From NCBI RefSeq assembly GCF_024502345.1, contig NZ_JALDNN010000001.1: 64,000 nt of DNA. One strand, given 5' to 3'. Within the stretch, counting starts at the first letter, position 1. Each line of letters begins with the position of its first letter. Below the pieces are notes generated by a model. The model had not been told where the DNA came from, ran no database searches, and saw only the letters and a list, made by a program, of their open reading frames with translations. This document shows, one piece after another, positions 35,131 to 56,911 of this stretch. This stretch comes from Escherichia coli (GTDB taxonomy: Bacteria; Pseudomonadota; Gammaproteobacteria; Enterobacterales; Enterobacteriaceae). The position numbers and the translations under genes are program-made.

Positions 35131-36515
35131 TCAGGCAACCTTTTCAACAGGAATGTCGGCAGTAGCGCGAGTGAGCGTCATCACCGACGCCAGTTTATTC
35201 AGGGTGCTGCCCAGGGTTTGCGGAATGGCGATGGCGGCCACGAAGCGGTCCGGACGCATGACTACCAGCGCGGCGTTGTGCTGGGCAAACCACGCGCGCA
35301 GGCGGTTTTGCGTATCGCCTATGCGGGTAACGCCGTCGTGGTTATCCTGATCGGTATGTATCTGCGTATCCGGCACGACCTGGATAAAACGCGTCCCCAG
35401 CGCCTGCCACTGTTGGATCTGCGCCTCGCTCATGCCCCATAGTGGGTTACAGCCCCAGCCAATCACCGCAAAATTCGGTCCGATGACGTTGTCGAGCAAC
35501 GTCACTTCGCCCGATTCCAGCGTCACCTTCGGCTGGATAAACATCTTGCCGACCGGTGAAGTTTTCGCGTCGCCTTCACGCACCAGCGCCCCGGCGTGGT
35601 ACTGCGGCATCGGCTTAAACCGCATTTCAAGGAAGTAGCGTTTGACCGGCGGAATATAGTTCAACAGCCAGGAAACCCCATCGCGTACCGCGCCGTGCCA
35701 GCGTTTGGGCGGCGCAAGTACGTTGCCAGCGGTCACGGAGAGGTCGATCATCGCTTTGGCGTGGTCGCGGCGTTCCTGCTGGTAGGTATCCAACAGCGCA
35801 TCGTCGGCTTTACCGTTAATCACCAGCGCCAGTTTCCATGCCAGGTTGAAAGCATCGCGCATGCCGCTGTTGTATCCCTGACCCTGCCAGACCGGCATAA
35901 TGTGCGCCGCATCGCCCGCCAGCAGCACGCGGTCAATACGAAAACGTTCGGCCAGACGAGCATTATGGGTATACACGCGCTGGCGGATCAGCTCGACGTT
36001 GTCCGGGTTCGGCAGCACTTTGCTCAGTAACTGGCGCATATTCTGCGGCTCGCTAAGCTGCGCTTCGGTTTCCCCCGGCATAACCATAAACTCAAAACGG
36101 CGCACCGCGTGCGGCAGCGCGGCAGAGACATACGGGCGCACCGGATCGCAGCATAAATACACATGCGGCGTGCTGAGCGGATCGTTGGCGATATCCACCA
36201 CAATCCACTGATTCGGCGCGGTTTTACCTTCAAACGGCACGTTCAGAGAACGTCTGACGTTGCTGCCGCCGCCGTCGCAGGCCACCAGCCACTGAGCCTT
36301 CACCGTTTCACGTTGACCGTCTGGCGCTTTCAGATTTAGCGTCACTTCGCCGTTTTGTTGGCTGAAGGCCTCCAGCTCGCGGGAGAACAGGCAGCGCACG
36401 TTGGGAAAACGCGACAACCCTTCCAACATCACCGCGTCCACCTGCGGCTGAATAAACGCATTACGACGCGACCAGCCAAATTCGTCGGTCATCGGCTGGA
36501 TATCAGCAAAGCAAC
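35131..36515 (-). pseudogene. mhpA: mhpA copy 2, 5'-truncated (first ~95 codons including FAD-binding N-terminus missing) by IS30
   Basis: Homology to copy-1 MhpA begins at ...[26 protein letters not shown] (copy-1 residue ~102); coding frame runs into IS30 left end at 36516. Confidence 0.8.
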
Positions 36516-39838
<3,323 letters not shown>

Positions 39839-40055
39839 AATTTAACCTTCATTTGATGTTGAATTGAACATATCAAAATCAGGCAATTACACAAATATAT
39901 GTACAGGCTCGCACCTGGGCTTGCCTGACTGACCGCAGGCCGGCGACGACAAGGTGGAAAAGTTCGGCGTGTGGCTCTGGCGGCAACGATCCCGCGAAGG
40001 GCGGACGGTGCTTGAGCTGTTGAACGTAAGCATGCGGGCAAACCATCTTGCGCGA

Positions 40056-40428
40056 CTATGCCGGATGCCACCTATGCGGCAGCAGCTCTGCAATCTCACT
40101 AGCTCGCTGCGTCGGCAACCGTCTCAGCACATCCTTGAGATAGGCATACGGATCGTGCCCATTATTACGGGCCGACTGGATCAAACTCATGATCGCAGCA
40201 GCGCGCTTGAGCATGCGAACCCGCGCCGAGCATTTGAGAAGGCAACGGGATGAACGCTGGCTGGATAGCCGTGGTTTTCTGGGTAAGCAGGCGAATCCAT
40301 TTGTGGACGAGGTTGGCATTGAGGCTGTAGCCCAAGGCGATGTTTGCGATGGAGGCACCGGGTTCAGAACACTCCTGAATGACCTGGGCCTTGAAAGATT
40401 TGCTGTAGGTACGGCGCTGAGGGCGCAT
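40056..40428 (-). mobile_element. IS66-family remnant: TnpA N-terminal part joined to TnpC C-terminal tail (internal deletion)
   Basis: MRPQRRTYSKSFKAQVIQECSEPGASIANIALGYSLNANLVHKWIR (IS66 TnpA-like HTH) and, in another frame, ...AAAIMSLIQSARNNGHDPYAYLKDVLRRLPTQRASEIAELLPHRW (IS66 TnpC C-terminal motif). Confidence 0.5.
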
Positions 40429-40935
40429 GGAAAATCCGCTTGATGGGCCATGGCCTTCGGCGGCGGTGTCGGGAAGGTGTGTTGGCCGGACGGATACTGT
40501 TGAACTACGTTGTCTGGGGCAACGGAAGTGTTTCGGCCCGACTCTGGAACGCGATCCGCAGCGACGACTGGGCAATTCCGCACGTTGGCCTGAGCAGCCT
40601 CGGGGAAATCGTCGTCTGGGCGCGCCCAGACGAGTTTCCGCCAAGGAACATGCAGACAAGCAAGGGGCTGCGGGCACTCGGCTACAACGTGAGGATCGGT
40701 GTTTGATCGAGGCGCCTGTGGCACACGCAGGCTGAGGAGCCAGGCGCTGTCCATTGCCTGATCAGGCCGCCCCCCTGTGCCTTGCCTGAGCAGTTGACCT
40801 GCATCAATGGGGCGGGAGAACGCTGCACATTGCACTCTTGACTCCTGAAGTTTTTCATGGTAAGCCTAATATTACAAAGTATTGCAAGGATTTCCTTGGC
40901 CGGAACCGCAAAGCGACGCGATTGGAGAGGGTGAG

Positions 40936-41217
40936 ATGAAAGCGCACCTACAGGTGATTTTCACGCTCGATGAATTGGCTGCGTACTTGAAAGTCGGCAA
41001 GCGGACGCTTTATCGGCTCGCCGCACACGGGGAAATTCCGGCTTTCAAGGTGGGCGGGACGTGGCGGCTTCGTCAAAGTGAAATCGATCAGTGCATCAAT
41101 GATCAGACCCGAGCCGGAGCAAAGAAGGAGGTGATGCGCAAGCGTGAACAGCAGAAGTCATCCGAGCAGCCCGTGTCGCCTGGGCGCACTGCCCGTCGCA
41201 GCAGGCAAAGGGCTTGA
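40936..41217 (+). CDS. small HTH DNA-binding protein (excisionase/MerR-like), tLST orf1
   Basis: ORF 40882..41217; start placed at MKAHLQVIFTLDELAAYLKVGKRTLYRLAAHGEIPAFKVGGTWRLRQSEIDQ (HTH_17-like) preceded by ggagaggg. Confidence 0.6.
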   Translation: MKAHLQVIFTLDELAAYLKVGKRTLYRLAAHGEIPAFKVGGTWRLRQSEIDQCINDQTRAGAKKEVMRKREQQKSSEQPVSPGRTARRSRQRA

Positions 41218-41251
41218 GTAACTCGTTTTCCAATTTTTCTGGAGGTATGAC

Positions 41252-41821
41252 ATGGACATCGATTTCAAGAAGTTGGCTCCCTGGAACTGGTTCAAGAACG
41301 AGCAGCAAGAGCAGCAGACCGCCTCTTCCCTGCCGGTGCAGCGCAATGACCTGCCAGCGGCGAGCGGGCCAGTCAGCCCGATCCTGCAACTGCGTCGGGA
41401 AATCGACCGGCTGTTCGATGACGCATTCCGGGGCTTCGGTTTTCCGGCGTTGAACATGCCGCAGTGGCCATCCGATTGGTCGGGCATGCTGAAGCCGGCC
41501 CTGGACATCCAGGAAACCGACAAGCAGTACAAGATTGCCCTGGAAGTGCCCGGTGTCGAGGAGAAGGACATCCAGATCACCCTCGACAACGACGTGCTGA
41601 TGGTGCGTGGCGAGAAGCGCCAGGAACAGGAGAAGAAGGAAGGTGGCTTCCACCGTGTGGAGCGCTCCTACGGCAGCTTTCAGCGTGCCTTGAACCTGCC
41701 TGACGACGCCAACCAGGATTCGATCAAGGCATCGTTCAAGAACGGGGTGCTCACGGTCACGATCGACAAGCGCGAGGTCAGCGCGCCGAAGCAGGGACGC
41801 TCGATCCCGATCAACGGCTGA
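41252..41821 (+). CDS. small heat-shock protein (Hsp20/alpha-crystallin family)
   Basis: 189-aa ORF with alpha-crystallin domain ...DIQETDKQYKIALEVPGVEEKDIQITLDNDVLMVRGEKRQEQEKKEGGFHRVERSYGSFQRALNLPDDANQDSIKASFKNGVLTVTI. Confidence 0.85.
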   Translation: MDIDFKKLAPWNWFKNEQQEQQTASSLPVQRNDLPAASGPVSPILQLRREIDRLFDDAFRGFGFPALNMPQWPSDWSGMLKPALDIQETDKQYKIALEVPGVEEKDIQITLDNDVLMVRGEKRQEQEKKEGGFHRVERSYGSFQRALNLPDDANQDSIKASFKNGVLTVTIDKREVSAPKQGRSIPING

Positions 41822-41926
41822 CGTCGCCGGCTCGTTCGTCACAAGAAAAACCCGTCCCGAGACGAGGTGTCGCGGCTCGCGATGCCTCGTCGCCTCAACC
41901 TTTTCAACCTTCTAAGGAGCATCAGC

Positions 41927-44809
41927 ATGGCCAGAAAACAATGCCAGGTCTGCGGCCAACCCGCCACCGTGCGGGTGGAAGCCAATCTCAACGGTCGTCA
42001 CAGCACCATGCTGTTGTGCGACGACCATTACCGGCAATTAGTGCGCCAGCAAAAGCGCACCGTTTCGCCGCTGGAAGCCTTGTTCGGTTCGCGCAGCGGC
42101 CTGTTCGAGGACTTCCTCGGCAGTGACTTCTTCCGCATCGGCGACGACGCGACGCCAGTTGCCGCCGATACCGATGACGTGGTCGATGCCTCGTTTGGCG
42201 AGCCCGCCGCCGCAGGTTCGGGTGCGCCGCGCCGTCGCGGCAGTGGGCTGGCCAGCCGCATCAGCGAACAGTCGGAAGCCTTGTTGCAGGAGGCCGCCAA
42301 ACACGCTGCCGAATTTGGCCGCTCCGAGGTGGATACCGAACATCTGCTGCTGGCGCTGGCCGACAGCGACGTGGTCAAGACCATCCTGGGTCAGTTCAAG
42401 ATCAAGGTCGATGACCTCAAGCGGCAGATCGAGTCTGAGGCCAAGCGCGGGGACAAGCCCTTCGAGGGCGAGATCGGCGTGTCGCCGCGCGTGAAGGATG
42501 CGCTCAGCCGCGCCTTCGTGGCCTCCAATGAACTCGGTCATTCTTATGTCGGTCCAGAGCATTTCCTGATTGGTCTGGCCGAGGAAGGCGAAGGGCTGGC
42601 CGCCAACCTGCTGCGCCGCTACGGCCTGACGCCGCAGGCGCTGCGCCAACAGGTCAGCAAGGTGGTCGGCAAGGGCGCCGAGGATGGACGCGCTGAGACG
42701 CCGACCAACACGCCCGAGCTGGATAAATACTCGCGCGACCTCACCAAGATGGCGCGCGACGGCAAGCTCGACCCGGTGATCGGCCGCGCGCAGGAGATCG
42801 AAACCACCATCGAGGTGCTGGCCCGGCGCAAGAAGAACAACCCGGTGCTGATCGGCGAGCCGGGTGTGGGCAAGACCGCCATCGTCGAAGGGCTGGCGCA
42901 GCGCATGGTGGCGGGTGAAGTGCCCGAGACCTTGCGCGACAAGCGCCTGGTGGAACTCAACATCAACGCCATGGTGGCCGGCGCCAAATATCGCGGCGAG
43001 TTCGAGGAGCGCGTGCAGAAGGTGCTGAAGGAGGTGACCGAGCACCAGGGCGAGCTGATTTTGTTCATCGACGAGGTGCACACCATCGTCGGTGCCGGCC
43101 AGGGCGGTGGCGAAGGCGGGCTGGACGTGGCCAACGTATTCAAACCGATGATGGCGCGCGGTGAACTCAACCTGATCGGCGCCACGACGCTGAACGAGTA
43201 CCAGAAATACATCGAGAAGGATGCCGCACTGGAGCGGCGCTTCCAGCCGGTGACGGTGCCCGAGCCGACGGTGGCCCAGACCATCATGATTCTGCGCGGC
43301 CTGCGCGACACCTTCGAGGCGCACCACAAGGTCAGCATCTCCGAGGACGCGATCATCGCGGCGGCCGAGTTGTCCGACCGCTACATCACGGCGCGCTTCC
43401 TGCCGGACAAGGCGATCGACCTGCTCGACCAGGCGGCCGCGCGCGTGAAGCTGTCGGCCACGGCCCGGCCGGTGGCCGTGCAGGAGCTGGAGTCCGAACT
43501 GCACCAGCTGCGGCGTGAACAGGATTACGTGGCCGCGCGCAAGCAGTACGACCAGGCCGCCGAGCTCGGCAAGCGCATCGAAGCCAAGGAGACCGAGCTC
43601 AAGAAGCTCGTCGAGAACTGGGAGCGGGAGCGGGCCTCCGGCAGTGCAGAGGTCAAGGCGGAACACGTGGCGCAGATCGTCTCGCGCCTGACCGGCATCC
43701 CTGTCAACGAGTTGACGGTGGAAGAGCGCGAAAAGCTGCTGCACTTGGAACAACGGCTGCACGAGCGCCTGGTGGGACAAGACGAGGCGGTCCGTGCCGT
43801 GGCCGATGCCGTGCGGCTGTCCCGCGCCGGCCTGCGCGAAGGCAGCAAACCGGTGGCTACCTTCCTGTTTCTGGGCCCGACCGGGGTGGGCAAGACCGAG
43901 CTCGCCAAGGCATTGGCCGAATCGATCTACGGCGATGAGCACGCCCTGTTGCGCATCGACATGTCGGAATATGGCGAACGCCATACCGTGGCGCGGCTGG
44001 TGGGCGCGCCTCCGGGCTATGTCGGTTACGACGAAGGCGGTCAGCTCACCGAGAAGGTGCGGCGCAAGCCCTACAGCGTGCTGCTGCTCGACGAGATCGA
44101 GAAGGCACACCCTGACGTCTACAACATCCTGCTGCAAGTGTTCGACGACGGTCGCCTCACCGACGGCAAGGGCCGGGTGGTGGATTTCACCAACACCATC
44201 ATCATCGCCACGTCCAACCTGGGTTCGGACATCATCCAGCGACGGCTGAAGGCGCGTGGGGCGGCCGACGAGGAGTACGAAAAGACCAAGGCCGAGGTCA
44301 TGGACGTGCTGCGCGGCCACTTCCGGCCCGAGTTCCTCAACCGCATCGACGAGATCATCGTCTTCCATGCGCTGGGTAAGGAGGAGATCCGCCACATCGT
44401 CGGCCTGCAGCTCGATCGCGTGGCGCGCAGCGCCGCCAGCCAGGGCGTGACGCTCACTTTCGATCAGACGCTGATCGACCATTTCGCGGAAGAAGGCTAC
44501 AAACCCGAGTTCGGTGCGCGTGAACTCAAGCGCCTGATCCGCAGCGAGCTGGAAACTGCGCTGGCGCGCGAGATGCTCGGTGGCGGCATCGGCAAGGGCG
44601 ATCACGCCAGCGCACGCTGGGACGACAAGGCCGAACGCGTGGTGTTCGAACGCAAAGAGCCACTGCAGACCCCGGCCGAGCCGGAGCAGCCGGATGCCGC
44701 GAAGGCGACCGAGCCGGAGCAGCCGGATGCCGCGAAGGCGACCGAGACGCCGCACGGCGACGCTGGCAAAGGCTCGCGCAAGAAGAAGTCGGCGAGCGAC
44801 GCATCTTGA
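41927..44809 (+). CDS. clpK: ClpK/ClpG-type stand-alone AAA+ disaggregase (two AAA domains, N-terminal zinc-binding extension)
   Basis: ORF 41867..44809; start at [15 protein letters not shown] after aaggag; Walker A GEPGVGKT / Walker [10 protein letters not shown] (AAA1), GPTGVGKT / [11 protein letters not shown] (AAA2); ClpB-like M-domain. Confidence 0.9.
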
Positions 44810-45060
44810 TGGCGGGCGAGGCTGCCGTGTCCGACCCCAAGGGCCTGGCATGGGCAGCCTCCCTGGCCTCGATCGCGGTGGCGTTCGTGGCCGCGGGTCA
44901 CGCGGTCGTCTACAAGCGTGATCCGCGGTCGACCACGCCGTGGGGGCTGCTCATCAGCGGCGGCACTGCCCTCCCGCTCGCTGGCCATCCGTTTGCGTGA
45001 CGGTGCGGCCCGTCTGTTCACCTGATCCTCTGGCAACTCGACTTTCGAGGAACACAGCCC

Positions 45061-46788
45061 ATGGAAAAAAAGAATCAATGGAATACCGGCTACTGGATCG
45101 TTGCCCTCCTGCTGTTGTTGAGTTTGCAGAGCTACTGGCAGACGGCGAAAACCGTCGAGCCGGTGCCCTACAGCGAGTTCGAGAAGGCGCTGGCCGAGGG
45201 GCGCGTGGCCGAAGTGCTGGTGTCGGATCGTACGGTGACCGGGCGCCTGAAGTCGCCGGACAGCCGGGGCAAGACGACGATCGTGGCAACGAGGGTCGAA
45301 CCCGATCTTGCCGATCGCCTGTCGAAGTACGACGTGCCCTATGCCCGCGTGTTGGAGAGCACCTGGCTGCGCGATGTGCTGTCGTGGATCCTGCCAGCGG
45401 TAGCCTTCTTTGGCGTCTGGTTCTTCCTGTTCCGCCGCTTCGCCGAGAAGCAGGGCATGGGCGGGTTTCTCAACATCGGTAAGAGCCGCGCCAAGGTGTT
45501 CGTGGAAAAGAACACCGGTGTGACGTTCGCCGATGTCGCGGGGGGGGATGAGGCCAAGGCGGAGCTGGTCGAGATCGTCGATTTCCTGAAGAATCCGCAG
45601 GACTATGGCCGTCTCGGGGCGCGCATTCCCAAGGGCGTGTTGCTGGTCGGCCCACCGGGCACCGGCAAGACATTGCTGGCCAAGGCTGTTGTCGGCGAGG
45701 CGGCGGTGCCCTTCTTCTCCATCTCCGGATCAGAGTTTGTCGAGATGTTCGTCGGCGTGGGTGCGGGCCGCACGCGCGGCGTCGGCGGCCACGACGAGAG
45801 CGAGCAGACCCTCAACCAACTGCTCACGGAGATGGACGGCTTCGACAGCTCGGTCGGGCTGATCATCCTCGCCGCCACCAACCGCCCCGAAATCCTCGAC
45901 CAGGCTCTGCTGCGTGCCGGCCGCTTCGACCGCCAGGTGCTGGTGGACCGGCCCGACAAGAAGGGGCGGCTGGACATCCTGAAGGTTCATGTCAAGAAGG
46001 TGACGCTGGCCCAGGATGTAGACCTCGAACAGGTAGCAGCACTGACCACGGGCTTTTCCGGCGCGGACCTCGCCAATAGGGTCAACAAGGCGGCGCTGGC
46101 GGCGAGGAGACGCCGTGCGTCCGCCGTGGAATTGCAGGACTTCACCGCGACCATCGAGCGCATCGTGGCGGGCCTGGAAAAGAAGAGCCGCGTGCTCAAT
46201 CCCAAGGAGCGGGAAACCGTGGCCCATCACGAGATGGGCCATGCGCTGGTGGCGCTGGCGCTGCCCGAAACCGACCCCGTACACAAGATCTCGATCATCC
46301 CGCGCGGCATCGGCGCGCTGGGCTACACCTTGCAGCGCCCCACCGAAGACCGCTTCCTGATGACGCGTACCGATCTCGAGCACAAGATCGCCGTACTGCT
46401 GGGCGGGCGTGCCGCCGAAAAGCTGGTGTTCGGCGAGTTGTCTACCGGGGCGGCGGACGATCTGGCGCGAGCCACCGACATCGCCCGCGACATGATCACC
46501 CGCTTTGGCATGGACGAGGGCCTGGGCTACATCGCCTTCGAGGCGCAGCGGCCCCGCTTTCTCGATACACCGGAACTGGCCCACGGCGGTTGCCGGGTGG
46601 CCGAATCGACCCAGGCGCGCATCGATCAGGCTATCCGCGACATCGTGATGGGCGTGTTCGAGCGCGCCTACCGGATTCTCGACATCTACCGCGCGGTGCT
46701 GGAGCGCTGCGCGCGCGAGCTGCTGGCGCGGGAAGCGCTCGACGAAAGCGATATCCGTCAATTGACTCAAGGACTTGTTCGGAACTGA
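45061..46788 (+). CDS. ftsH: FtsH-family membrane AAA+ zinc metalloprotease (island copy); apparent in-frame gap removing Walker B
   Basis: 575-aa ORF; two N-terminal TM segments, Walker [34 protein letters not shown], zinc site HEMGHAL; only GRTRGVG between GVGA and GHDE. Confidence 0.8.
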
Positions 46789-46875
46789 AAACAGTAGTAG
46801 GTGCCATTCAGAGTAAACCGACGGCTCTGTTCAGTGCGTCATCCAATTCGTCGGCATTGTTCAAGGAGAACCGAT

Positions 46876-47334
46876 ATGTCTGCATTGACTCCGTGGGACC
46901 CCTTCCGGGAACTGGATGAATTGCAAAACCGCCTGGCGACGATGTTCGGACGAATACCCCAGCGACAGGGCGCCCGTACCGGCAACGAAGCCATGACCAC
47001 GGCGGACTGGGCACCAATGGCGGACATCAGCGAGGATGAGAACGCATTCCTCCTCAAGCTGGATCTGCCGGAGGTCCCCAAGGATGCCGTGCGCGTCAGC
47101 GCGGAAAACGGTGTGCTCACCATCAGCGGCGAGCGCAAACTGGAAAAAGAGGAGCAGGGCAAGAAGTTCCACCGCATCGAACGTGCGTATGGCCGCTTTG
47201 TGCGCAGCTTTGTCTTGCCTGACAACGTTGATCCGACCAAGGTGACGGCTTCCATGAAAGACGGCGTACTGGAAGTGCGGCTTGTCAAGGCCGAGCAAGC
47301 CAAACCGAAACAGATTGAAATCTCAGTCAACTAA
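46876..47334 (+). CDS. small heat-shock protein (Hsp20 family), second copy
   Basis: ORF 46801..47334; start placed at MSALTPWDPFRELDELQNRLATMF after aaggag; alpha-crystallin core ...FLLKLDLPEVPKDAVRVSAENGVLTISGERK... Confidence 0.85.
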   Translation: MSALTPWDPFRELDELQNRLATMFGRIPQRQGARTGNEAMTTADWAPMADISEDENAFLLKLDLPEVPKDAVRVSAENGVLTISGERKLEKEEQGKKFHRIERAYGRFVRSFVLPDNVDPTKVTASMKDGVLEVRLVKAEQAKPKQIEISVN

Positions 47335-47356
47335 CTTCAATCAGGAGCCCAAGATC

Positions 47357-48271
47357 ATGAATATCAAACAGCCACAATACACCTTCTCCGCACTTGCCCT
47401 GGCGGTCGTCGTCGGACTGAGCGGACCGGCTCTGGCCCAATCGGCGGCAGGTTCTAGCCCAGGTGCTGCAGCCCCCTCTGCCGCATCCAAGGCGGCACAG
47501 CCACAAGTAGATGACAAGGCCGCCCGGGAAGCCGATAAAAAGCGTGCCGAGCTCACTCAAGACGCCATCACGGCGCTCACCAAGACCCAGGAGGCTTTGA
47601 CCCTCCTTGATGCAAAGAAGACCAAGGAGGCGCTTGCTGCGCTGGAACTGGCCAGCGGAAAGCTGGAACTGGTATTGGCACGTGACGCCAAACTTGCTTT
47701 GGCGCCGGTCGATGTACGCGTCATCACCCACGATATCCACGCCAACGTGGAATCGGTAAAGAAAGCGGTCAAGTTGTCTCGGGAGTTGTTGGGTGATGGC
47801 GAGGTGCAAAAGGCCCGGCCCATCGTTGCCAATCTGGCCAGCGAAATCGTAATCCAAACCGACAACCTTCCGATGGCAACGTACCCGGCAGCGATCAAGT
47901 CGGCCGCACGGCTCATCGACAGCGGCAAGATCGACAACGCCAAAGCGGAACTCGCCCGAGCACTGAACACGCTGGTGGTGACCTCGGTCGCCTTTCCTCT
48001 GCCCGTGCTACGGGCCGAAGCCGCGATGGCAAAAGCTGAAAAGCTGGCCGAGACCGACAGGCGCGATGCCAAGCAGAACGAGGAGCTCAGCACCTTGCTG
48101 TCGTCCGTGCGCACGGAGATCGAGATGGCGCAGATCCTGGGTTATGGCAAGAAGGCGGACTTCAAACCCATTTTCGATCAGGTGAAGTCCATTGAGCAAA
48201 AGTCGGCTGGTGGCAAAAGCGGCAAGGGATGGTTCGACGAGTTGAAGACGCGCATCCAAAAGCTGTTTTGA
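47357..48271 (+). CDS. yfdX: YfdX-family periplasmic protein (tLST YfdX1-like)
   Basis: ORF 47282..48271; start at MNIKQPQYTFSALALAVVVGLSGPALAQ (signal peptide); Ala/Lys-rich helical protein; position in tLST order. Confidence 0.65.
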   Translation: MNIKQPQYTFSALALAVVVGLSGPALAQSAAGSSPGAAAPSAASKAAQPQVDDKAAREADKKRAELTQDAITALTKTQEALTLLDAKKTKEALAALELASGKLELVLARDAKLALAPVDVRVITHDIHANVESVKKAVKLSRELLGDGEVQKARPIVANLASEIVIQTDNLPMATYPAAIKSAARLIDSGKIDNAKAELARALNTLVVTSVAFPLPVLRAEAAMAKAEKLAETDRRDAKQNEELSTLLSSVRTEIEMAQILGYGKKADFKPIFDQVKSIEQKSAGGKSGKGWFDELKTRIQKLF

Positions 48272-48373
48272 GGTGATGAAGGGGCTGACTGCTCTGTCGG
48301 TCAGTCTCGCGATGTTCGCATTCAGCCCCAACAGATTCGCCTATTTTCACTATCTCATACGAGGCATATCACC

Positions 48374-49261
48374 ATGAATGAGCAAACACCGAATCCCAAT
48401 GCGACGAACGAAGGAATAAACGAACAAGCCGCGGTAAGCAGCCTTCCTGTCAGTCCAGAGTCCAAGCCTGAAGTCGTCACGGAGGTACAGCCTGAGGTTC
48501 AGAAAGAAACGGACTCGCAGGCGGCAGACAAACGTAAACAAGTCCTCGATGAGGCAGTCTCGGCCTTGTCGCTGACCAAATCAGCGCTGGCCGCACTTGA
48601 CGGCAAGGACACTGCACGCGCATTGGCAACGCTGGCCGAAGTGACGGGAAAGCTGGAGCTGATCGTCGCGCGCGAACCCACGCTCGCCCTGGCCGGCGTT
48701 GATGTGCGCACCATCGTGCACGACTTGTTCGCCAACACGGAAACCATTGAGGCGATGACCGACGAGGCGCTGGATGCCCTCAAACATGGCGAGGTGCAAC
48801 AGGCTCGCCACGTGCTGGCTTTGCTGGCCAGTGAAATCGTGATCACGGTCACCAACATCCCTTTGGCGTCCTATCCCGCAGCCGTGAAGGCAGTCGTGCC
48901 GCTGATCGATCAGGGCAAGATCGAAGAAGCCAAAGCCGCGCTGCAGTCAGCGCTCAGCACGCTGGTCGAGGAGCGCAGCGTGCTTCCGCTGCCCGTCCTG
49001 CGTGCGAAGCTGCTCCTGAAGCGCGCCGAGCCTCTGGTAGAAGATGGTCAGCGCAGCGAAGCATCCAATGAGCGCCTGGAGACATTGTTGAACGAAGCCC
49101 GGCAGCAGTTGGAAATGGCAGAACTGCTGGGCTATGGAAAAAGGAAGGACTTTGAGCCCCTGTACGCTGAACTCAAGAAAATCAAGGAAAAGACGGGAGG
49201 GGGAGGCTTCGGAAAAGGCTGGCTCGATGAAGTCAAGGCAAAACTGTCCAGGTTGTTCTGA
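48374..49261 (+). CDS. yfdX: YfdX-family protein paralogue (tLST YfdX2-like); no obvious signal peptide
   Basis: 295-aa ORF sharing C-terminal motifs with the preceding gene (…LPLPVLRA…AEKLAE…ILGYGKK.DF.P…KGW.DE.K..…LF). Confidence 0.6.
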   Translation: MNEQTPNPNATNEGINEQAAVSSLPVSPESKPEVVTEVQPEVQKETDSQAADKRKQVLDEAVSALSLTKSALAALDGKDTARALATLAEVTGKLELIVAREPTLALAGVDVRTIVHDLFANTETIEAMTDEALDALKHGEVQQARHVLALLASEIVITVTNIPLASYPAAVKAVVPLIDQGKIEEAKAALQSALSTLVEERSVLPLPVLRAKLLLKRAEPLVEDGQRSEASNERLETLLNEARQQLEMAELLGYGKRKDFEPLYAELKKIKEKTGGGGFGKGWLDEVKAKLSRLF

Positions 49262-49270
49262 AACCGCTGG

Positions 49271-49295
49271 AGAGGGGGCGCATAGTGCCCCCTCT
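49271..49295 (+). terminator. GC-rich hairpin downstream of yfdX2 (possible intrinsic terminator; U-tract not immediately adjacent)
   Basis: agagggggc-gcatagt-gccccctct perfect 9-bp stem, followed ~20 nt later by tttgattttttattttg. Confidence 0.35.
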
Positions 49296-49350
49296 CTTGT
49301 CCCATGAGTGTTTGATTTTTTATTTTGTATAGATCTTTAGGAGATATTGC

Positions 49351-49962
49351 ATGAACACAGACACCATCACCGATTCCAGTGCGGATGACCCCACCAAAGC
49401 ACTGTGTTCGCTTAGCCAAAATTGGTGGCTTTTTGTGCTGCGCGGTGTCTTGGCATTGATTTTTGCAGCCCTCGCGTTCTGGATGCCACAATCGGCTCTG
49501 TTGGCCATGACCATCATGTTCGGCGCATTTTCCTTGGTCAATGGCGCGTTCAACTTGTTTGCAGCGGTGCGCCATATCCAGAAAAAAGAGCGCTGGGGCT
49601 GGTTGTTGTTCAGCGGCATTGTCGGCATACTTACGGGCGTCGTCGTCCTGGTTGCTCCTTGGGTCGCCACGATAGTCTTGGCTTCTTTTTTATGGGCTAG
49701 CGTGGGCTTCTGGGCGATTTTCACCGGTGTGCTGGAGATATCTGCCGCCGTTCGGCTGCGTCGGGAAATCAAGGGTGAAATCTGGCTTGCCCTCAGTGGA
49801 CTGCTCTCGATTATCCTTGGTGCTATCGTCTTGTGGATATTTTTTACCCGTCCGGTCGAGTCATTCGTGGCCGCAGGCTGGCTGTTGGGTTTCCATGCGG
49901 CAGTCTATGGCGTCACGCTTTTGTTCTTGAGTTGGAGTCTTCGCAAAACGCGCCTGGGGTAA
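49351..49962 (+). CDS. hdeD: HdeD-family acid-resistance membrane protein
   Basis: 203-aa ORF with ~6 hydrophobic segments (…WWLFVLRGVLALIFAALAFWMPQSALLAMTIMFGAFSLVNGAFNLFAAV…); tLST order. Confidence 0.75.
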   Translation: MNTDTITDSSADDPTKALCSLSQNWWLFVLRGVLALIFAALAFWMPQSALLAMTIMFGAFSLVNGAFNLFAAVRHIQKKERWGWLLFSGIVGILTGVVVLVAPWVATIVLASFLWASVGFWAIFTGVLEISAAVRLRREIKGEIWLALSGLLSIILGAIVLWIFFTRPVESFVAAGWLLGFHAAVYGVTLLFLSWSLRKTRLG

Positions 49963-50041
49963 GAGCGTGCCAAACCAAAATCTATGGATATGAGCATCCT
50001 CGATTCATGCCTCCATAGAAATGACATCGAAGGAGTCATAC

Positions 50042-51187
50042 ATGCAGATACAATATAGCTATCGAGCTATCGACAAAGAGTTTCATGAACCTTGGCAGAG
50101 AGCTTTGGGAAATGTGATCGAGCACGCCCTCAAGCCATTGCTCGACAAACACACTAAAGATTCAGCGCGACTTCAAATCGTCCTTGATCGCGACAAGATC
50201 AAGCGGCAATTTCTGGCCAGTGGCTATATGCACCTGCCCGGCAAAAAGATTGTCAGCGTTACTGCATCACATGACGAGCTGACGCCCCTCGCGCAGATGC
50301 TCGCACAGTCGTTGTTCCGTCAGGCCAAGAAGCATTTTGACCGACTGCATGCTCAGGATCAAATCAAGCGCAAAGCACGACGCGAGCGCTTGCGCGAGCT
50401 CAAGGTGCGGATTGCCGCAAAACCCGCATCAGCCGCCCATGAGGCCGAGGTGACCCGAATGCCTCTACTGTCGAAACTTGAGGCTGTCGCAAGGCGTGAG
50501 CTGGCTTATCTGCGGGCCGTCGGCGATTTACCGCGCGATTATCCGACGCTGCGCGACGTGGTGGATGAAGCGATTGTCCGAGCTAAGGTGGAATGGCAAT
50601 CCGTGCCGGGGGAAAAAGAGGCTTACACCGGTCTTTTGAAGCATCTGTTCGCCGTCCTGGATAACGAAGTGGCAAGCAGCCGGCAATTTGGCGAATTCGT
50701 TTCTCTGGACGCGCCGGTCGAACCGGATGCCCAAGACGTGGCCGAGGCCATGGTGGAAGAGGAAATCTTCGAATTTTATCAGCACGATGACACACTCAAG
50801 CTGGCCGATATTTTCGCTGGCAGTCAGCATCCCGATGTCGCAACGATCGCGGAACAGGAGGAGCTGATTGATCGGTCGAGCGAGTTCGCTTTTGCATTTG
50901 ACCTGCTGAAGGACATGCCGCGTTTGTGGCGGCGCATTTTTCTGCTTATCCGTGTGGACGGGCTGAATGCCAGCAGCGTCTCTGAAATCCTGCTGATTCC
51001 TAGTAAGGAAGATGCTGTCCAAAGGTGGCTCATGCAGGCCGAAGCATTCATCGCTGCTCATCTGGAAGAGGCCGGAGTAAGCAAAAACGGGAACGATTGG
51101 CTCCAAGGCGTTGATTGGCCGGCATTGTCTGTGACCCGAAGCGAGGCAGCCTCACTGTGGTCCAAGGAGGCGAACCATGAAGAATGA
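50042..51187 (+). CDS. hypothetical protein (tLST orf11); C-terminal segment resembles sigma-70 region 4 HTH
   Basis: ORF 50021..51187; ATG at 50042 preceded by aggag; C-terminal LKDMPRLWRRIFLLIRVDGLNASSVSEILLIPSKEDAVQRWLMQAEAFIAAHL. Confidence 0.5.
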   Translation: MQIQYSYRAIDKEFHEPWQRALGNVIEHALKPLLDKHTKDSARLQIVLDRDKIKRQFLASGYMHLPGKKIVSVTASHDELTPLAQMLAQSLFRQAKKHFDRLHAQDQIKRKARRERLRELKVRIAAKPASAAHEAEVTRMPLLSKLEAVARRELAYLRAVGDLPRDYPTLRDVVDEAIVRAKVEWQSVPGEKEAYTGLLKHLFAVLDNEVASSRQFGEFVSLDAPVEPDAQDVAEAMVEEEIFEFYQHDDTLKLADIFAGSQHPDVATIAEQEELIDRSSEFAFAFDLLKDMPRLWRRIFLLIRVDGLNASSVSEILLIPSKEDAVQRWLMQAEAFIAAHLEEAGVSKNGNDWLQGVDWPALSVTRSEAASLWSKEANHEE

Positions 51188-51617
51188 TCTTCACCTCGTC
51201 TGCCCGCATTGCCAGTCCATCAACCGCGTACCGACTGCGAAGCTATCGGAACATCCCAACTGTGGCCGCTGCCAGCAGCCCTTGTTCACGGGCGAGCCCA
51301 TCGAGTTGACCACGGCGACGTTCTCGCGCCACGTGGAGCGCAGCGATCTGCCGCTGCTGGTCGATTTCTGGGCGCCATGGTGCGGGCCGTGCAAGATGAT
51401 GGCGCCACAGTTCCAGCAAGCGGCGCACCAGCTCGAACCGACGATCCGGCTGGCGAAGGTGAATACCGAGGCTGAGCCCCACCTGGCCGCGCAGTTCGGT
51501 ATCCGCAGCATCCCGACGCTCGCCCTGTTCCAGGGTGGGCGGGAGATCGCCCGTCAGGCCGGCGTGATGGGCGCGCAGGACATCGTGCGCTGGACGTCGA
51601 CGCAAGTGGGACGCTGA
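51177..51617 (+). CDS. thioredoxin with N-terminal zinc-finger extension (Trx2-like)
   Basis: 146-aa ORF: CPHCQSINRV...CGRCQQPLF zinc ribbon and active site WAPWCGPCKMMAP. Confidence 0.85.
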   Translation: MKNDLHLVCPHCQSINRVPTAKLSEHPNCGRCQQPLFTGEPIELTTATFSRHVERSDLPLLVDFWAPWCGPCKMMAPQFQQAAHQLEPTIRLAKVNTEAEPHLAAQFGIRSIPTLALFQGGREIARQAGVMGAQDIVRWTSTQVGR

Positions 51618-51620
51618 CCG

Positions 51621-53336
51621 ATGCAGGGCTTGCTCGGCACTACGCTAATCCTGCTGGCGGCTTGCAGCCTGGCGGCGATGGCGACGGCGGCGTTCAGAGT
51701 GCCCGCCTTGCTGGGGTATCTCTCTGTCGGCGTTGTACTGGGCCCCTCAGTCATCGGCGTGATCGCGCCGGGGGAGACGCTGAGCTTTCTGTCCGAGCTG
51801 GGCGTGGCGCTGCTGTTGTTCATGGTCGGACTGGAATTCTCCCTCGGAGACTTCTGGCTCGCCCGCAGGACGGTGCTGATGGCGGGCGCTCTGCAGATGA
51901 TCGCCGTGGCCCCGCCGCTGATCCTGCTATTGATGTGGCTGGGGCAGCCCGGCCAGAGCGCCGCGCTGCTCGGCACTGCGGCGGCCATGTCGTCCACGGC
52001 GCTGGTCAGCCGACAACTGGCCGACCAAGGCGAGCTCACCACCCGCCACGGACGCAGTGCCATCGCCGTGCTGGTCTTTCAGGACCTGGCCAGCGTGCCC
52101 CTGCTGGCCTTGCTGGCGATCTGGGCGCGCGGCGACTCGCCGAAGATCGAGCATGTGCTGCTCGAAGTATTCGGTGTGCTGCTGCTGTTCGCGGCAGCGG
52201 CCCTCGCCTCGCGCCGTCTGTTGCATGGCCTGCTGGGCTGGGTGGCGCGGCGGGGCCACGAGGAATCGTTCGTGCTCGTCTCCTTGTGCGTGGTGGTGGC
52301 CGCCGCCGCCGCTGCGCACGCGGTCGGCGTATCTGCCGCCCTGGGGGCCTTCCTCGCCGGGATGGTGCTGGGCGAGAGCGACTTCCGGCACCACATGGAA
52401 AGCCACCTCAGGCCGTTTCGCGATGTGTTGTCGGGCGTGTTCTTCGTGACCATCGGCCTGCAACTGGACGCAGCACAGATTCTTTCGGCACCGCTGGCGG
52501 TGCTGGCGTGGCTGGTGGTGCTGGTACCGGTCAAGATCCTGCTCAATACACTGGCCTTGCGGGCGACGCGCCTGTCCGCCCTCGATGCCTGGCGCACGGG
52601 CATAGCGTTGGGGCACGGCGGCGAGTTCGCCCTGCTGTTGTTGGGCACGGTCTTGCAGCAGCATCTGATCCCCGCGACCGTCGTCCAACCCATGCTGGTC
52701 GCGCTGGTGCTCAGCATGGCCCTGGCACCGCTACTGATCCGCCATCACGATGTACTTGCCCGGTTCTTGAGCCGCACCGGCGGCGTCATTCAGCCACCCC
52801 AGGCTGAAGAAGTCGAGATCGCCGCGCAGACGACGCGATATCGAGACCATGTCATCATTTGCGGCGCGGGCGAGCTTGGCCTGACAGTCAGCGAGATTCT
52901 TCGCCACGCCGGCGTGGCGCATCTGCTGCTGGAGGCGGACGCGCAGAAGGTCGAGGCCGCGCGTGCCGCCGGCGCGCCGGTGTTCCATGCCGATGCCAGT
53001 CGGCCCGATACCTTGCTGGCTGCCGGCTTGACGCATGCACACTTGGTGGTGCTGACGTTCGCCCATGCCCAGCAAGCGTTGCGCATCGCCCAGGCGATTG
53101 CCGAGCACCGTCCGGCGCTGACCTTGTGGGTGTCATGCAGAAGTACGACCGCGGCCGATGCATTTCGCGCCATGCCCAACGTGCGCGTGTATCAGCAATC
53201 CTTTGCCGCAGCTATTGGGCTGGCGGAACAGGTGATGTCGACGCTTGGCATGTCGACCGAGCTGATTGAAGGACACATCAGCGCAATGCGCCGCCGTCTC
53301 GACAGCAGCCGTTTTCCAGGGAGTTCATCGTCATGA
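51621..53336 (+). CDS. kefB: KefB-like monovalent cation:proton antiporter-2 (CPA2) with C-terminal TrkA-N/RCK domain
   Basis: 571-aa ORF; 12-13 TM segments then Rossmann-type VIICGAGELG... regulatory domain. Confidence 0.8.
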   Translation: MQGLLGTTLILLAACSLAAMATAAFRVPALLGYLSVGVVLGPSVIGVIAPGETLSFLSELGVALLLFMVGLEFSLGDFWLARRTVLMAGALQMIAVAPPLILLLMWLGQPGQSAALLGTAAAMSSTALVSRQLADQGELTTRHGRSAIAVLVFQDLASVPLLALLAIWARGDSPKIEHVLLEVFGVLLLFAAAALASRRLLHGLLGWVARRGHEESFVLVSLCVVVAAAAAAHAVGVSAALGAFLAGMVLGESDFRHHMESHLRPFRDVLSGVFFVTIGLQLDAAQILSAPLAVLAWLVVLVPVKILLNTLALRATRLSALDAWRTGIALGHGGEFALLLLGTVLQQHLIPATVVQPMLVALVLSMALAPLLIRHHDVLARFLSRTGGVIQPPQAEEVEIAAQTTRYRDHVIICGAGELGLTVSEILRHAGVAHLLLEADAQKVEAARAAGAPVFHADASRPDTLLAAGLTHAHLVVLTFAHAQQALRIAQAIAEHRPALTLWVSCRSTTAADAFRAMPNVRVYQQSFAAAIGLAEQVMSTLGMSTELIEGHISAMRRRLDSSRFPGSSSS

Positions 53337-53830
53337 AATCAACACGCCTTAACCCATTTCAGGTCTTACGTGACCAATTGGCCATCATGAGTTTTTACGA
53401 GCGCTTCGAGCAGGTCGTCGCGCTCGTGCTGTCGGCGGTGATCGCCGTCATCATCGTGGTGTCGCTGTTCCAGCTCATCTCCATCGTCTTCACGCTGCTG
53501 GTTCTAGATGCCTTCAATCCCCTGGACCACGAGGTATTCCAGAGCGTGTTCGGCATGATCATGACGCTCTTGATCGCGATGGAGTTCAAGCATTCCATCG
53601 TGCGCGTGGCGCTGCGTCGGGACAGCATCATCCAGGTCAAGACGGTGGTCCTGATCGCGCTGATCGCACTCTCCCGCAAGTTCGTGATCCTCGACTCCAA
53701 CGCGAGCCCCGCAAAGATAGCCGCGCTGGCTAGCGCCACGCTGGCTCTGGGTGCGACCTACTGGCTGCTGCGCAAGCGCGGCGACCGCGCCGCCGAGACC
53801 TCTGAGCATGACCCGTCATCATCCCAGTGA
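53333..53830 (+). CDS. psiE: PsiE-family inner-membrane protein
   Basis: 165-aa ORF, four hydrophobic segments; position in tLST order; overlaps upstream and downstream genes. Confidence 0.6.
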   Translation: MKSTRLNPFQVLRDQLAIMSFYERFEQVVALVLSAVIAVIIVVSLFQLISIVFTLLVLDAFNPLDHEVFQSVFGMIMTLLIAMEFKHSIVRVALRRDSIIQVKTVVLIALIALSRKFVILDSNASPAKIAALASATLALGATYWLLRKRGDRAAETSEHDPSSSQ

Positions 53831-54773
53831 TCCGCGCACGGCGCTCTTGCAACACCGCTGGCTCAACCGCCTGCAGACCGGGCTGTTGGTCCTGACCCTG
53901 GTCGGGATCGCAGCCGCAGCAGGGAGACTGCCGTTTGGGGAAGGCTGCCTGTGGCTCGCGCTGTTTGCCATTGCAGGTGCGTTGCTGCTGGAACCGGTAG
54001 CCGCGTCGGCGCTGAGCTTGCGCCTGTACCGCGTACGGGCCTTGCACCCGCAAGAAGCCCACAAGATGTGGGCCCTATTGCGCGAGCTGCCCGCCCGTGC
54101 CGGTTTGCCCGCCACGCCGGTGCCGCACTATGTGCCCAGTGCCGTCGTCAACGCCTTCGCCACCGGATCGAAGCAGGAGGCATCGATCGCCCTCACCGAT
54201 GGCCTGCTGCGCAGCCTGAGCCCACGCGAGCTGGCGGGTGTGCTCGTGCACGAGGTCGCGCACATCGCTAATGAGGATCTGCGTGTCATGGGGCTGGCGG
54301 ATTCCGACAGTCGCCTCACGAGCCTACTGGCCCTTATGGGACAGATCGCGATCCAGCTCAGCCTGCCCGCGCAGCTGGTTGGCGCGGCGGAGGTCTATTG
54401 GCCTGGTCTATTGTTATTGGCCGCATCGCCCCAGCTGGCCCTGCTCGCACAGCTCGGCTTGTCTCGCGTGCGTGAGTTCGACGCTGACCGCCTTGCGGCG
54501 GAACTGACTGGCGACCCGCAGGGGCTGGCGTCCGTGCTGGCAAAAATCGAGCGGGTCAGCCGCTCCTGGCGTGCCTGGCTATGGCCGGGATGGGGCAATC
54601 CCGAGCACTCCTGCTTGCGTACGCGTCCGGCAACGCAAGAGCGCATTGCACGCCTGCTGACGTTGGCGCCTGGGCCAGCATCAGCGTTGCCACTCCGCGC
54701 GCCCCATTTTTTGCCGGAATCCGCTTTGGCGACGCGCCCACCGAGCTGGCGCCCGAGCGGGCTGTGGCGCTGA
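53808..54773 (+). CDS. M48-family zinc metalloprotease (HtpX-like)
   Basis: ORF 53751..54773; start placed at MTRHHPSDPRTALLQHRWLNRL; HExxH motif VLVHEVAHIANEDL; N-terminal TM segments. Confidence 0.75.
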   Translation: MTRHHPSDPRTALLQHRWLNRLQTGLLVLTLVGIAAAAGRLPFGEGCLWLALFAIAGALLLEPVAASALSLRLYRVRALHPQEAHKMWALLRELPARAGLPATPVPHYVPSAVVNAFATGSKQEASIALTDGLLRSLSPRELAGVLVHEVAHIANEDLRVMGLADSDSRLTSLLALMGQIAIQLSLPAQLVGAAEVYWPGLLLLAASPQLALLAQLGLSRVREFDADRLAAELTGDPQGLASVLAKIERVSRSWRAWLWPGWGNPEHSCLRTRPATQERIARLLTLAPGPASALPLRAPHFLPESALATRPPSWRPSGLWR

Positions 54774-54797
54774 TTGCCCATCAACAGGAGACGTCTC

Positions 54798-55949
54798 ATG
54801 GCCTATCTCGACCCGTACCAACGCCCCGCGCCGGACCGCTTCGTCCGGCGCGGGCTCTTCATCACCGCCTGCATTGCCGCGCTCATGCTGCTGTGGCAGT
54901 TTCTGCCCGCCATCGAGGCATGGTTCAGTCCGCGCGAGGCAGCAGAACGCACCGTGATGGCGCGTGGCGATCTGGCGGCGGACGAGAAAACCACCATCGA
55001 ACTGTTCGAAAAATCGCGCGCCTCGGTGGTCTACATCACCACCGCGCAATTAGTACGCGATGTCTGGACGCGCAACGTGTTCTCCGTGCCGCGCGGCACT
55101 GGCTCGGGCTTCATCTGGGACGACGCCGGCCACGTCGTCACCAACTTCCACGTCATCCAGGGCGCGTCCGAAGCCACCGTCAAACTGGCCGACGGCCGCG
55201 ACTACCAGGCCGCGCTGGTGGGGATGAGCCCCGCGCACGACATCGCCGTGCTCAAGATCGGCGTCGGTTTCAAGCGCCCGCCGGCCGTGCCGGTCGGCAC
55301 CAGTGCCGACCTCAAGGTGGGTCAGAAGGTGTTCGCTATCGGCAACCCCTTCGGCCTGGACTGGACGCTCACCACAGGTATCGTCTCCGCGCTCGACCGC
55401 TCGTTGCCGGGAGAAGCGGGCGGCCCGGCCATCGATCACCTGATCCAGACCGACGCCGCCATCAACCCCGGCAATTCCGGTGGCCCGCTGCTCGATTCGG
55501 CTGGGCGGCTGATCGGAATCAATACCGCCATCTACAGTCCGTCTGGCGCCTCGGCCGGCATAGGCTTTGCGGTGCCGGTCGATACCGTCATGCGCGTGGT
55601 GCCGCAACTCATAAAGACCGGCAAGTACATCCGTCCGGCACTGGGCATCGAGGTGGATGAGCAGATCAACGCGCGTCTGCAGGCGCTGACCGGCAGTAAG
55701 GGCGTATTCGTATTGCGCGTGACGCCGGGCTCGGCGGCGCACAGGGCCGGGCTCGTCGGCGTCGAGGTCACCGCAGGCGGCATCGTGCCCGGCGATCGCG
55801 TTATCAGCATCGACGGTATCGCCGTCGACGACGTCACCACATTACAGGCCCGGCTAGACGACAAGAACGTTGGAGATGTTGTGGTCTTGTTAGTGGAGCG
55901 GGCCGGCAAGACTCGCGAGATGCTTGTGGAACTACAACCGGGAGTTTGA
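54798..55949 (+). CDS. degP: DegP/HtrA-family periplasmic serine protease with single PDZ domain
   Basis: ORF 54774..55949; start at MAYLDPYQRP after aggag; catalytic H (TNFHVI), D (DIAVLKI), S (GNSGGPLL); C-terminal PDZ. Confidence 0.85.
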   Translation: MAYLDPYQRPAPDRFVRRGLFITACIAALMLLWQFLPAIEAWFSPREAAERTVMARGDLAADEKTTIELFEKSRASVVYITTAQLVRDVWTRNVFSVPRGTGSGFIWDDAGHVVTNFHVIQGASEATVKLADGRDYQAALVGMSPAHDIAVLKIGVGFKRPPAVPVGTSADLKVGQKVFAIGNPFGLDWTLTTGIVSALDRSLPGEAGGPAIDHLIQTDAAINPGNSGGPLLDSAGRLIGINTAIYSPSGASAGIGFAVPVDTVMRVVPQLIKTGKYIRPALGIEVDEQINARLQALTGSKGVFVLRVTPGSAAHRAGLVGVEVTAGGIVPGDRVISIDGIAVDDVTTLQARLDDKNVGDVVVLLVERAGKTREMLVELQPGV

Positions 55950-56173
55950 TGGAAAGTGGGTCATGGATCTGCACAGCGAAGCAGCCAAGCGACTTCAGCC
56001 TTGCGCCGAACTACGAGCCCTAGCTAGGGATGGTCTGAAGTAGCCCTGTATTTCCGGCTGACTTCAGCCACTGCTGATTTTGAAAGCGGTGAACCGATCA
56101 AAAACGATCGGATCACCCGCTCATTTCGGTGCTTTCAGCCGTCGCGAGCACCTTGCGACGGCCATTTTCCGCA

Positions 56174-56770
56174 TTACAGGCGCACCTCTCCTGCGCTTGC
56201 CAGCAAATGTCGGCGGGCCATCCATAGGTTCGACAGGGCAAACAGCGTCACCAGTTGTGCAGTGTTCCTCACCAGCCCTCGGAAACGTACCTTGGTGTAG
56301 CCGAACTGCCGCTTGATCACGCGAAACGGGGGCTCTACCTTCGCTCGCACTTGCGCCTTGGCCTTCTCGATCTTGCGCTTGGCTTTGTACAGGGCGCTGC
56401 GTTTATCGAGCATCTTGTAGGTGCTGCGGCGTGCTGCGACCTGCCAGATCACTTCTCGGTCGGCATGCTCGGAGCGCTTTTCGACGCCGGTGTAGCCGGC
56501 ATCGGCGCAGACGACGTTCTCGTCGCCGTGCAGCAGCTTGTCGACCTGGGTGACATCCGCCACGGTGGCTGCCGTGCCCACCACGCTGTGTACCAGCCCC
56601 GATTCATCATCAACGCCGATGTGCGCCTTCATGCCAAAGTAATACTGGTTCCCCTTCTTGGTCTGGTGCATTTTCGGGTCGCGCTTGCCGTCCTGGTTCT
56701 TGGATGAACTGGGCGCGTGGATCAGCGTGGCATCGACGATAGTCCATCTTGATAATATCGGGCCGCTCAA
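56174..56770 (-). pseudogene. IS5-family transposase fragment (C-terminal ~190 aa; 5' part absent)
   Basis: ...DATLIHAPSSSKNQDGKRDPKMHQTKKGNQYYFGMKAHIGVDDESGLVHSVVGTAATVADVTQVDKLLHGDENVVCADAGYTGVEKR... DDE_Tnp_1-type motifs; no N-terminal domain upstream. Confidence 0.65.
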
Positions 56771-56911
56771 CGCTCGGGTACCAGGAGGTGACGGACCCGT
56801 ATACCAAAGAAAAATACTTTGAGTACGCCCATGACGGCAAACTGATGGGGCAGCTACTGATACCCTCGAACCCTGACAATCAGGAATAAAACAACGACAA
56901 AGGAGACAAGA

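Follow-up and report, generated by a model that had tools for sequence, protein, structure and literature searches.

The clpK gene and its island

The window (the whole 64-kb stretch of DNA that was analysed) carries the clpK gene, also named clpG-GI, on its plus strand. The mechanical ORF of clpK begins at a GTG codon at position 41867 (41867-44809), and the ATG start used here was taken from RefSeq homologues. The genes in this part of the window are as follows.

41252-41821, plus strand: sHSP20 gene upstream of clpK
41927-44809, plus strand: clpK (clpG-GI) coding sequence, 960 aa
44809-45000, plus strand: hypothetical ORF of 63 aa, whose ATG overlaps the clpK stop codon (TGATG)
45061-46788, plus strand: FtsH-like ORF of 575 aa downstream of clpK, without the Walker B segment

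Membership of the ClpK family was judged by a score above the curated cut-off of NCBIfam profile NF033606 together with a full-length alignment that included the ClpG-specific N1 region. The product scored 2132.2 bits against a cut-off of 1900 and aligned end to end. Residues 1-960 aligned to profile positions 1-949, so that the protein of the window corresponds to the profile plus exactly one 11-residue unit. The N-terminal Cys-rich segment (CQVCG...LLCDDHY) was visible in the translation. Long antisense ORFs overlie clpK, for example one of 937 aa on the minus strand at 42038-44851; these are the usual by-product of a gene with 65% GC.

Positions 38164-56781 were collinear, at 99.7% identity, with the annotated locus of heat resistance (LHR) of E. 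coli 504239, in which the order is HTH, hsp20, clpK, ftsH, hsp20-GI, yfdX1/2, hdeD-GI, trx-GI, kefB-GI, psiE-GI, htpX and a serine protease (degP). The flanks of the island were E. coli chromosome of the prp/mhp/mmu region. GC content was 0.59-0.66 over much of the island compared to a background of about 0.50-0.59, with peaks of 0.64-0.66 in several 2-kb bins. Judged by its collinearity with strain 504239, clpK sits in an LHR/tLST island.

A perfect 33-nt tandem repeat in the C-terminal tail

The C-terminal extension (CTE) of the window ClpK contains a short tandem array, with the following features.

44657-44806, plus strand: CTE coding region, 50 aa, made of EPLQTPA, two 11-aa units and 21 aa
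44676-44746, plus strand: full extent of the tandem identity, 2.15 copies (TRF)
44678-44710, plus strand: repeat unit 1, GAGCCGGAGCAGCCGGATGCCGCGAAGGCGACC, 33 nt, encoding 11 aa (sequence read and TRF)
44711-44743, plus strand: repeat unit 2, identical to unit 1 (sequence read and TRF)
44676-44680, 44709-44713 and 44742-44746, plus strand: CCGAG, a 5-nt direct repeat and likely slippage microhomology
44744-44776, plus strand: the next 33 nt, tentatively an old degenerate copy of the unit, sharing 17 of 33 nt

The first-pass annotation had described a perfect head-to-tail 33-bp duplication close to the clpK stop codon, encoding one 11-residue peptide twice. Direct reading of the sequence and TRF agreed on the duplication (44676-44746, period 33, 2.2 copies, 100% matches, 0 indels, score 142), and translation in frame confirmed the repeated peptide, as the units begin at a codon boundary of the clpK frame. 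The interval given there, 44677-44743, ended correctly and began one base early, the real start being 44678. Beyond the two 33-mers the identity runs on for 2 nt upstream and 3 nt downstream because CCGAG stands at either border as well as at the junction. From the end of the array to the stop codon (44807-44809) there are 63 nt, or 21 codons.

By chance alone a perfect 33-nt tandem copy would be expected about 64000 x 4^-33 times in a window of this size, and the copy is not a chance event. Only one other tandem array in the window scored at least 60 by TRF, a 94-nt intergenic repeat at 18730-19068. When the 33 nt that follow the array (44744-44776) were compared with the unit, the 17 of 33 identities stood against an in-frame null mean of 10.8 (SD 2.8), and 1.7% of the in-frame 33-mers of clpK reached 17. 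This match is suggestive only and we do not claim the segment as an ancient third copy.

Changes in the array by whole units keep the reading frame and leave the overlapping 63-aa ORF unaffected. No promoter-like or terminator-like sites were found within 44300-45200, and a regulatory role of the repeat was set aside on this ground. Phase variation was also considered and rejected: the 33-nt unit keeps the frame and no promoter is involved. Since the frame is kept, on/off switching is not possible.

Copy number among clpK alleles and the origin of the array

A 601-nt query around the repeat found the clpK tail in 142 of 5,426 complete E. coli genomes, with matches that spanned either 601 or 568 nt, a difference of 33 nt. 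A 42-nt probe centred on the junction between units, which is unable to match a one-copy allele, was matched by 66 genomes (67 records, 66 of them at 99% identity or above), and these therefore carry at least two copies; multi-copy alleles thus make up 46% (66/142) of the E. coli alleles. Comparison of ClpK C-termini, which the first-pass annotation had proposed as a check of its predicted length polymorphism, returned alleles of one, two, three and four units with products of 949, 960, 971 and 982 aa, all from intact RefSeq coding sequences. One unit (WP_000101613) was found in AW1.7, BKQWHE, the H15 plasmid, CX12, 027_SK3, C236-04A and NCTC11121, and the reference protein of 949 aa likewise has one. 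The two-copy allele of the window is RefSeq protein WP_000101612.1, and NCTC11023 also carries two, with a single G-to-A substitution. Exactly three copies (WP_001548197) were confirmed by sequence in KL53, 730V1 and 22AR0118, which gave exact matches to a synthetic three-copy allele with both flanks. FAM21845 has four perfect units.

The clpK tail was also present in 1,236 plasmids, mostly from Klebsiella, and the junction in only two of these, both E. coli plasmids. Scans of genome and metagenome contigs for the initial 19 nt of the unit gave 127 loci, nine of which were true clpK tails, the rest being mostly chance matches in GC-rich genomes; one of the nine, on a human-gut metagenome contig, has two copies. 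If the second copy had arisen in the sequencing or assembly of the source genome it would not be expected elsewhere, whereas the identical two-copy allele occurs in 60-odd independent complete E. coli genomes, in two plasmids and in the human-gut contig, and an array of 66 nt fits within a normal sequencing read. On this evidence the repeat is not an assembly artefact, an explanation to which we give practically no chance.

The one-copy state points to how the array may have formed. In E. coli the single unit is flanked by CCGAG direct repeats. Slipped-strand mispairing or unequal exchange classically gives rise to length changes at short direct repeats. The founding duplication would have come about by replication slippage or unequal exchange between the two CCGAG copies, which the one-copy allele carries at a spacing of 33 nt. 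A pair of perfect units would then misalign more easily, and the array could grow or shrink by whole units, which would give CTEs of 39, 50, 61 and 72 aa for one to four units with the reading frame and the downstream overlapping ORF untouched. Slipped-strand mispairing, the origin already suggested in the first-pass annotation, is the mechanism we infer, and both the microhomology at the borders and the recurrent change on identical haplotypes fit it.

Recurrence was examined by haplotype comparison over 6.2 kb (41400-47630 of the window) in 19 E. coli-type alleles, which gave 50 gap-free SNP columns. C236-04A, with one copy, and ECONIH4, with two, differed at no SNP over the 6.2 kb, on both sides of the repeat. 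FAM21845 (four copies) and VG888 (two) differed at one SNP, and KL53 (three) and FAM21845 at two; copy number thus differs between haplotypes that are only 0-3 SNPs apart over 6.2 kb. VG888, KL53 and FAM21845 lie on one sub-haplotype and carry two, three and four copies, respectively. The 873.10 plasmid has two copies on an AW1.7-type background, which has a 901-bp ftsH deletion and elsewhere carries one copy. In all, four haplotype backgrounds were each found with more than one copy-number state. When copy number was placed on the neighbour-joining tree of the island SNPs it required 10 Fitch changes, compared to a mean of 9.1 for permuted labels and so no fewer than random, and from this lack of phylogenetic signal we take the changes to be recurrent. 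Repeated expansion and contraction is the simplest reading of a tree that is built on few sites (50 SNPs, 19 alleles) in islands that are mosaic. A donor for the patch of synonymous SNPs in clpK that is private to the window was not found among the E. coli genomes or plasmids.

Exchange between islands by recombination could make copy number look homoplastic. The two-copy state might accordingly be one old duplication that marks a lineage, its scatter being due to exchange between islands and not to repeated slippage. All E. coli multi-copy alleles do belong to a single subtype (EPLQTP), the SNP patterns of the mosaic islands are not tree-like, and copy number is stable, at two, across the laboratory lineages E. 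coli C, C122, NCTC122 and WG5 with its derivatives. However, the existence of four states would require several events anyway, one-copy and two-copy alleles can be identical at every other position of the 6.2 kb on either side of the repeat, a single sub-haplotype holds three of the states, and the units are still perfectly identical in almost all alleles. We therefore consider a single inherited duplication very unlikely and prefer recurrent slippage. That these long-separated lineages of the E. coli C group have all kept two copies also means that, over laboratory time scales, the array is not hypermutable.

The same segment has changed in other clpK lineages. Among the C-terminal fragments of ClpK/ClpG homologues that were compared, one A. 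baumannii protein has the peptide AEPEKPDAAKA twice. Its DNA contains a tandem duplication of the homologous 33-nt unit, GAGCCTGAGAAGCCCGATGCCGCGAAGGCGGCC, relative to a one-copy plasmid, in which the unit is flanked by CGGCCGAG (11 of 12 matching, with AAG). Both copies carry four Acinetobacter-specific bases and are told apart by one later G-to-A change. Since both copies carry these lineage-specific bases the duplication would postdate the split of the lineages, and judged by them it is independent of the E. coli one. The Acinetobacter junction was found in 10 plasmids out of about 39-44 that carry clpK (about 25%). A 931-aa allele of Klebsiella and Kluyvera (tail ending ...|SDAS) has a 54-nt deletion, bounded by two GGCGA motifs, which removes 18 aa including the KKK patch; it is the commonest Klebsiella allele and accounts for most of the rows in the spread of matches listed from the 1,236 clpK plasmids. 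Tails of the Pseudomonas type show a KPAR|KPAR duplication.

The extension, its possible function and related systems

The CTE of the window ClpK has a net charge of -3 and consists of 94% disorder-promoting residues, and it is predicted to be intrinsically disordered. An AF2 model of the last 229 aa, made from the single sequence (pLDDT 57.7), placed the last structured element at a strand pair ending in RVVFER and predicted no secondary structure after it; as overall confidence was low, the model only weakly suggests an unstructured tail. With every further unit, the stretch that separates the AAA2 ring from the basic KKK patch at the terminus grows by 11 residues, including two prolines, and its net charge shifts by -2. 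The remark in the first-pass annotation that the repeat could modulate the extension is correct only as regards length and charge.

Katikaridis et al. (2021, J Biol Chem; PMC8024975) described the ClpG CTE as a Pro/Lys-rich stretch of 20-40 residues that is predicted to be disordered. Deletion of the whole CTE left disaggregation of MDH and luciferase in vitro and basal ATPase activity essentially unchanged (PMC8024975). Complementation of dnaK103 by the deletion protein was lower, slightly so for lethal heat and more so for growth at 41 °C (PMC8024975), and because of this reduction at 41 °C the CTE has some role in vivo that its length could affect. The authors themselves state that the role of the CTE needs more study (PMC8024975). 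These published deletion data argue that any functional effect of the repeat would be small.

Selection might nevertheless act on the number of acidic, Pro-rich 11-aa modules, with CTE length or charge modulating ClpK in vivo. Possible routes would be how far the terminal KKK patch reaches or how well it is shielded, interactions within the hexamer or with partners, and control of toxicity. Such tuning would accord with the independent duplication of a homologous unit in E. coli-type and Acinetobacter-type clpK, with the frequency of multi-copy alleles (66/142 E. coli genomes and 10 of about 40 Acinetobacter plasmids), with the dnaK103 result and with the shift in charge that each unit brings. 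Against it, copy number has no visible association with source or phenotype and is random with respect to haplotype. Heat-resistant strains include both the one-copy AW1.7 and the four-copy FAM21845, the phenotype of the latter having been reported (PMC5514686). Moreover the CTE is dispensable in vitro, the commonest Klebsiella allele has a tail that is shortened by 18 aa and has no KKK patch, and the border microhomology is enough by itself to explain why this segment duplicates. We regard adaptive tuning as unlikely. The version in which the length of the CTE spacer is a selected tuning knob and the E. coli and Acinetobacter expansions are convergent, for instance through masking of the KKK patch, control of toxicity or contacts with partners or the membrane is given a slim chance; if it were true, a CTE so far without function would gain a measurable role.

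Disaggregation in vitro does not need the CTE, and tail lengths in nature run from 21 to 72 aa; the repeat is therefore most likely near-neutral. Overall we think it probable that the array is an in-frame VNTR in the disordered CTE of ClpK/ClpG-GI, born by slippage, whose effect on the disaggregase is most likely small or nil.

The first-pass annotation had also suggested the repeat as a typing marker. This stands for sub-typing of islands and fails for clades: copy number is homoplastic, with no phylogenetic signal on the SNP tree, and for that reason the marker is to be read as a VNTR. As the array rides on a horizontally transferred island, it types the island and not the host. An amplicon across about 44.6-44.8 kb would resolve at least five clpK tail lengths (-54, 0, +33, +66 and +99 bp relative to the reference), which could serve for sub-typing of LHR/tLST islands in food, clinical and wastewater E. 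coli, with modest practical value. Copy number also explains odd identity values for clpK. Marti et al. (2017) reported clpK of FAM21845 to be only 96.6% similar to that of AW1.7 and left this unexplained; the value coincides exactly with 2850/2949, as three additional units would predict. This is relevant wherever clpK is scored by percent identity or coverage. In addition, CTEs of 21, 39, 50, 61 and 72 aa in otherwise near-identical proteins form a natural allelic series that is a resource for work on CTE function.

A description of the clpK repeat or its peptide was not found in the literature searched (by the peptide, and by clpK with repeat terms), and the CTE study makes no mention of repeat polymorphism (PMC8024975). 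The alleles are already public as separate RefSeq proteins, and in the literature searched the polymorphism is undescribed.

The closest system is the CTE of ClpG/ClpG-GI itself (PMC8024975), which likewise follows the AAA2 small domain as a Pro/Lys-rich stretch with predicted disorder, the window gene being the E. coli orthologue in the same tLST/LHR island. It differs in that 20-40 residues were described there, whereas natural E. coli alleles have 39, 50, 61 or 72 through whole-unit repeats, and a deletion allele of 21 residues also exists. The Klebsiella-type deletion allele resembles the array in being an in-frame length change of this CTE bounded by microhomology (GGCGA), and it likewise shows that the tail tolerates change. 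In contrast to the array it is a 54-nt deletion that leaves no KKK patch, with no expansion, and it is dominant in Klebsiella plasmids and not in E. coli chromosomes.

Phase-variable contingency loci share repeat-driven sequence change with the clpK array. They are defined by shifts of frame or promoter spacing, whereas the clpK unit is frame-neutral and lies in a region free of promoter-like sites, and by instability on a clonal scale, which was not seen across E. coli C and its relatives; the array thus falls outside this class. In-frame coding VNTRs, or minisatellites, are the better comparison. RecA-independent rearrangements of tandem repeats have been studied in E. coli, and coding VNTR loci are used in MLVA typing. 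The clpK array has the properties of such loci, namely perfect head-to-tail units, a unit length divisible by three (33 = 3 x 11), copy number that varies among near-identical strains and alleles, and microhomology at the borders. It differs from them in its low copy number (1-4), its apparently slow change and its place on a horizontally transferred island. Nothing in the repeat challenges current understanding; as an in-frame VNTR within a disordered tail it is ordinary, and it adds a new example to a familiar class.

Length variation in the ClpK tail

In Fig. 4 of Marti et al. (2017), clpK of strain FAM21845 was given as 96.6% similar to that of AW1.7, without explanation. When the two loci were compared (L151, FAM21845, and L006, AW1.7) this value was found to equal 2850/2949, and the three additional 33-nt units in FAM21845 fully account for it.

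Other length changes were observed in the tail. The commonest ClpK tail of Klebsiella plasmids among the matches listed carries an in-frame 54-nt deletion with GGCGA at its borders; the C-terminal extension thereby loses its basic KKK patch, and the protein is 931 aa long.

Window 44709-44797 (equivalent position): 54-nt clpK tail deletion, in loci L010, L013, L040 and L054 and metagenome loci L069, L075, L089 and L101

Pseudomonas-type ClpG-GI tails, read from homologue fragments P0006 and P0019 versus P0029, contained a tandem duplication of 4 aa (KPAR|KPAR) immediately N-terminal of the KKK patch, which is a further small repeat event in the same C-terminal tail as the 33-nt unit.

Private substitutions in clpK of the window

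Within 28 nt of the window clpK (42715-42742, aa 263-272) there were six substitutions, all at third codon positions and fully synonymous. This patch was present in none of 147 E. coli genomes and none of 1,277 plasmids, all of them clpK carriers (top identity 96.7%), and resembles a short tract of gene conversion by a divergent donor. Beyond it, the window gene has three further private SNPs (42538, 43592 and 43702), one of which gives A556T.

Island junction and chromosomal portion

At the left junction of the island, window 36515-38164 is unlike strain 504239 (L001 11070-13767), where a group II intron (ltrA) is located; the intron is absent in the window, which has approx. 1.2 kb of different sequence at 36515-37739.

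36578-37729: ORF at the left junction, 383 aa

The chromosomal portion contains a tandem array at 18730-19068 (94-nt unit, 3.6 copies, 95% matches) with REP/BIME-like palindromic sequence inside it.

Open reading frames downstream of clpK

A hypothetical ORF of 63 aa (44809-45000), conserved across all E. coli-type islands examined, begins with an ATG that overlaps the clpK stop (TGATG, 44807-44811), and this overlap suggests that the two are translationally coupled.

45061-46788: FtsH-like ORF, 575 aa

The FtsH-like ORF is without approx. 30 residues, the gap falling between FVGVGA and GGHDE. Since the missing segment includes the Walker B motif, for which the counterpart in solved FtsH 7tdo is FIDEID, the product is probably ATPase-dead. 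This 575-aa form is annotated as intact in several RefSeq genomes. In other islands the gene carries a 1-nt frameshift (504239 and E. coli C), a 901-bp deletion (AW1.7-type) or an 84-nt deletion at 45839-45922 (730V1).
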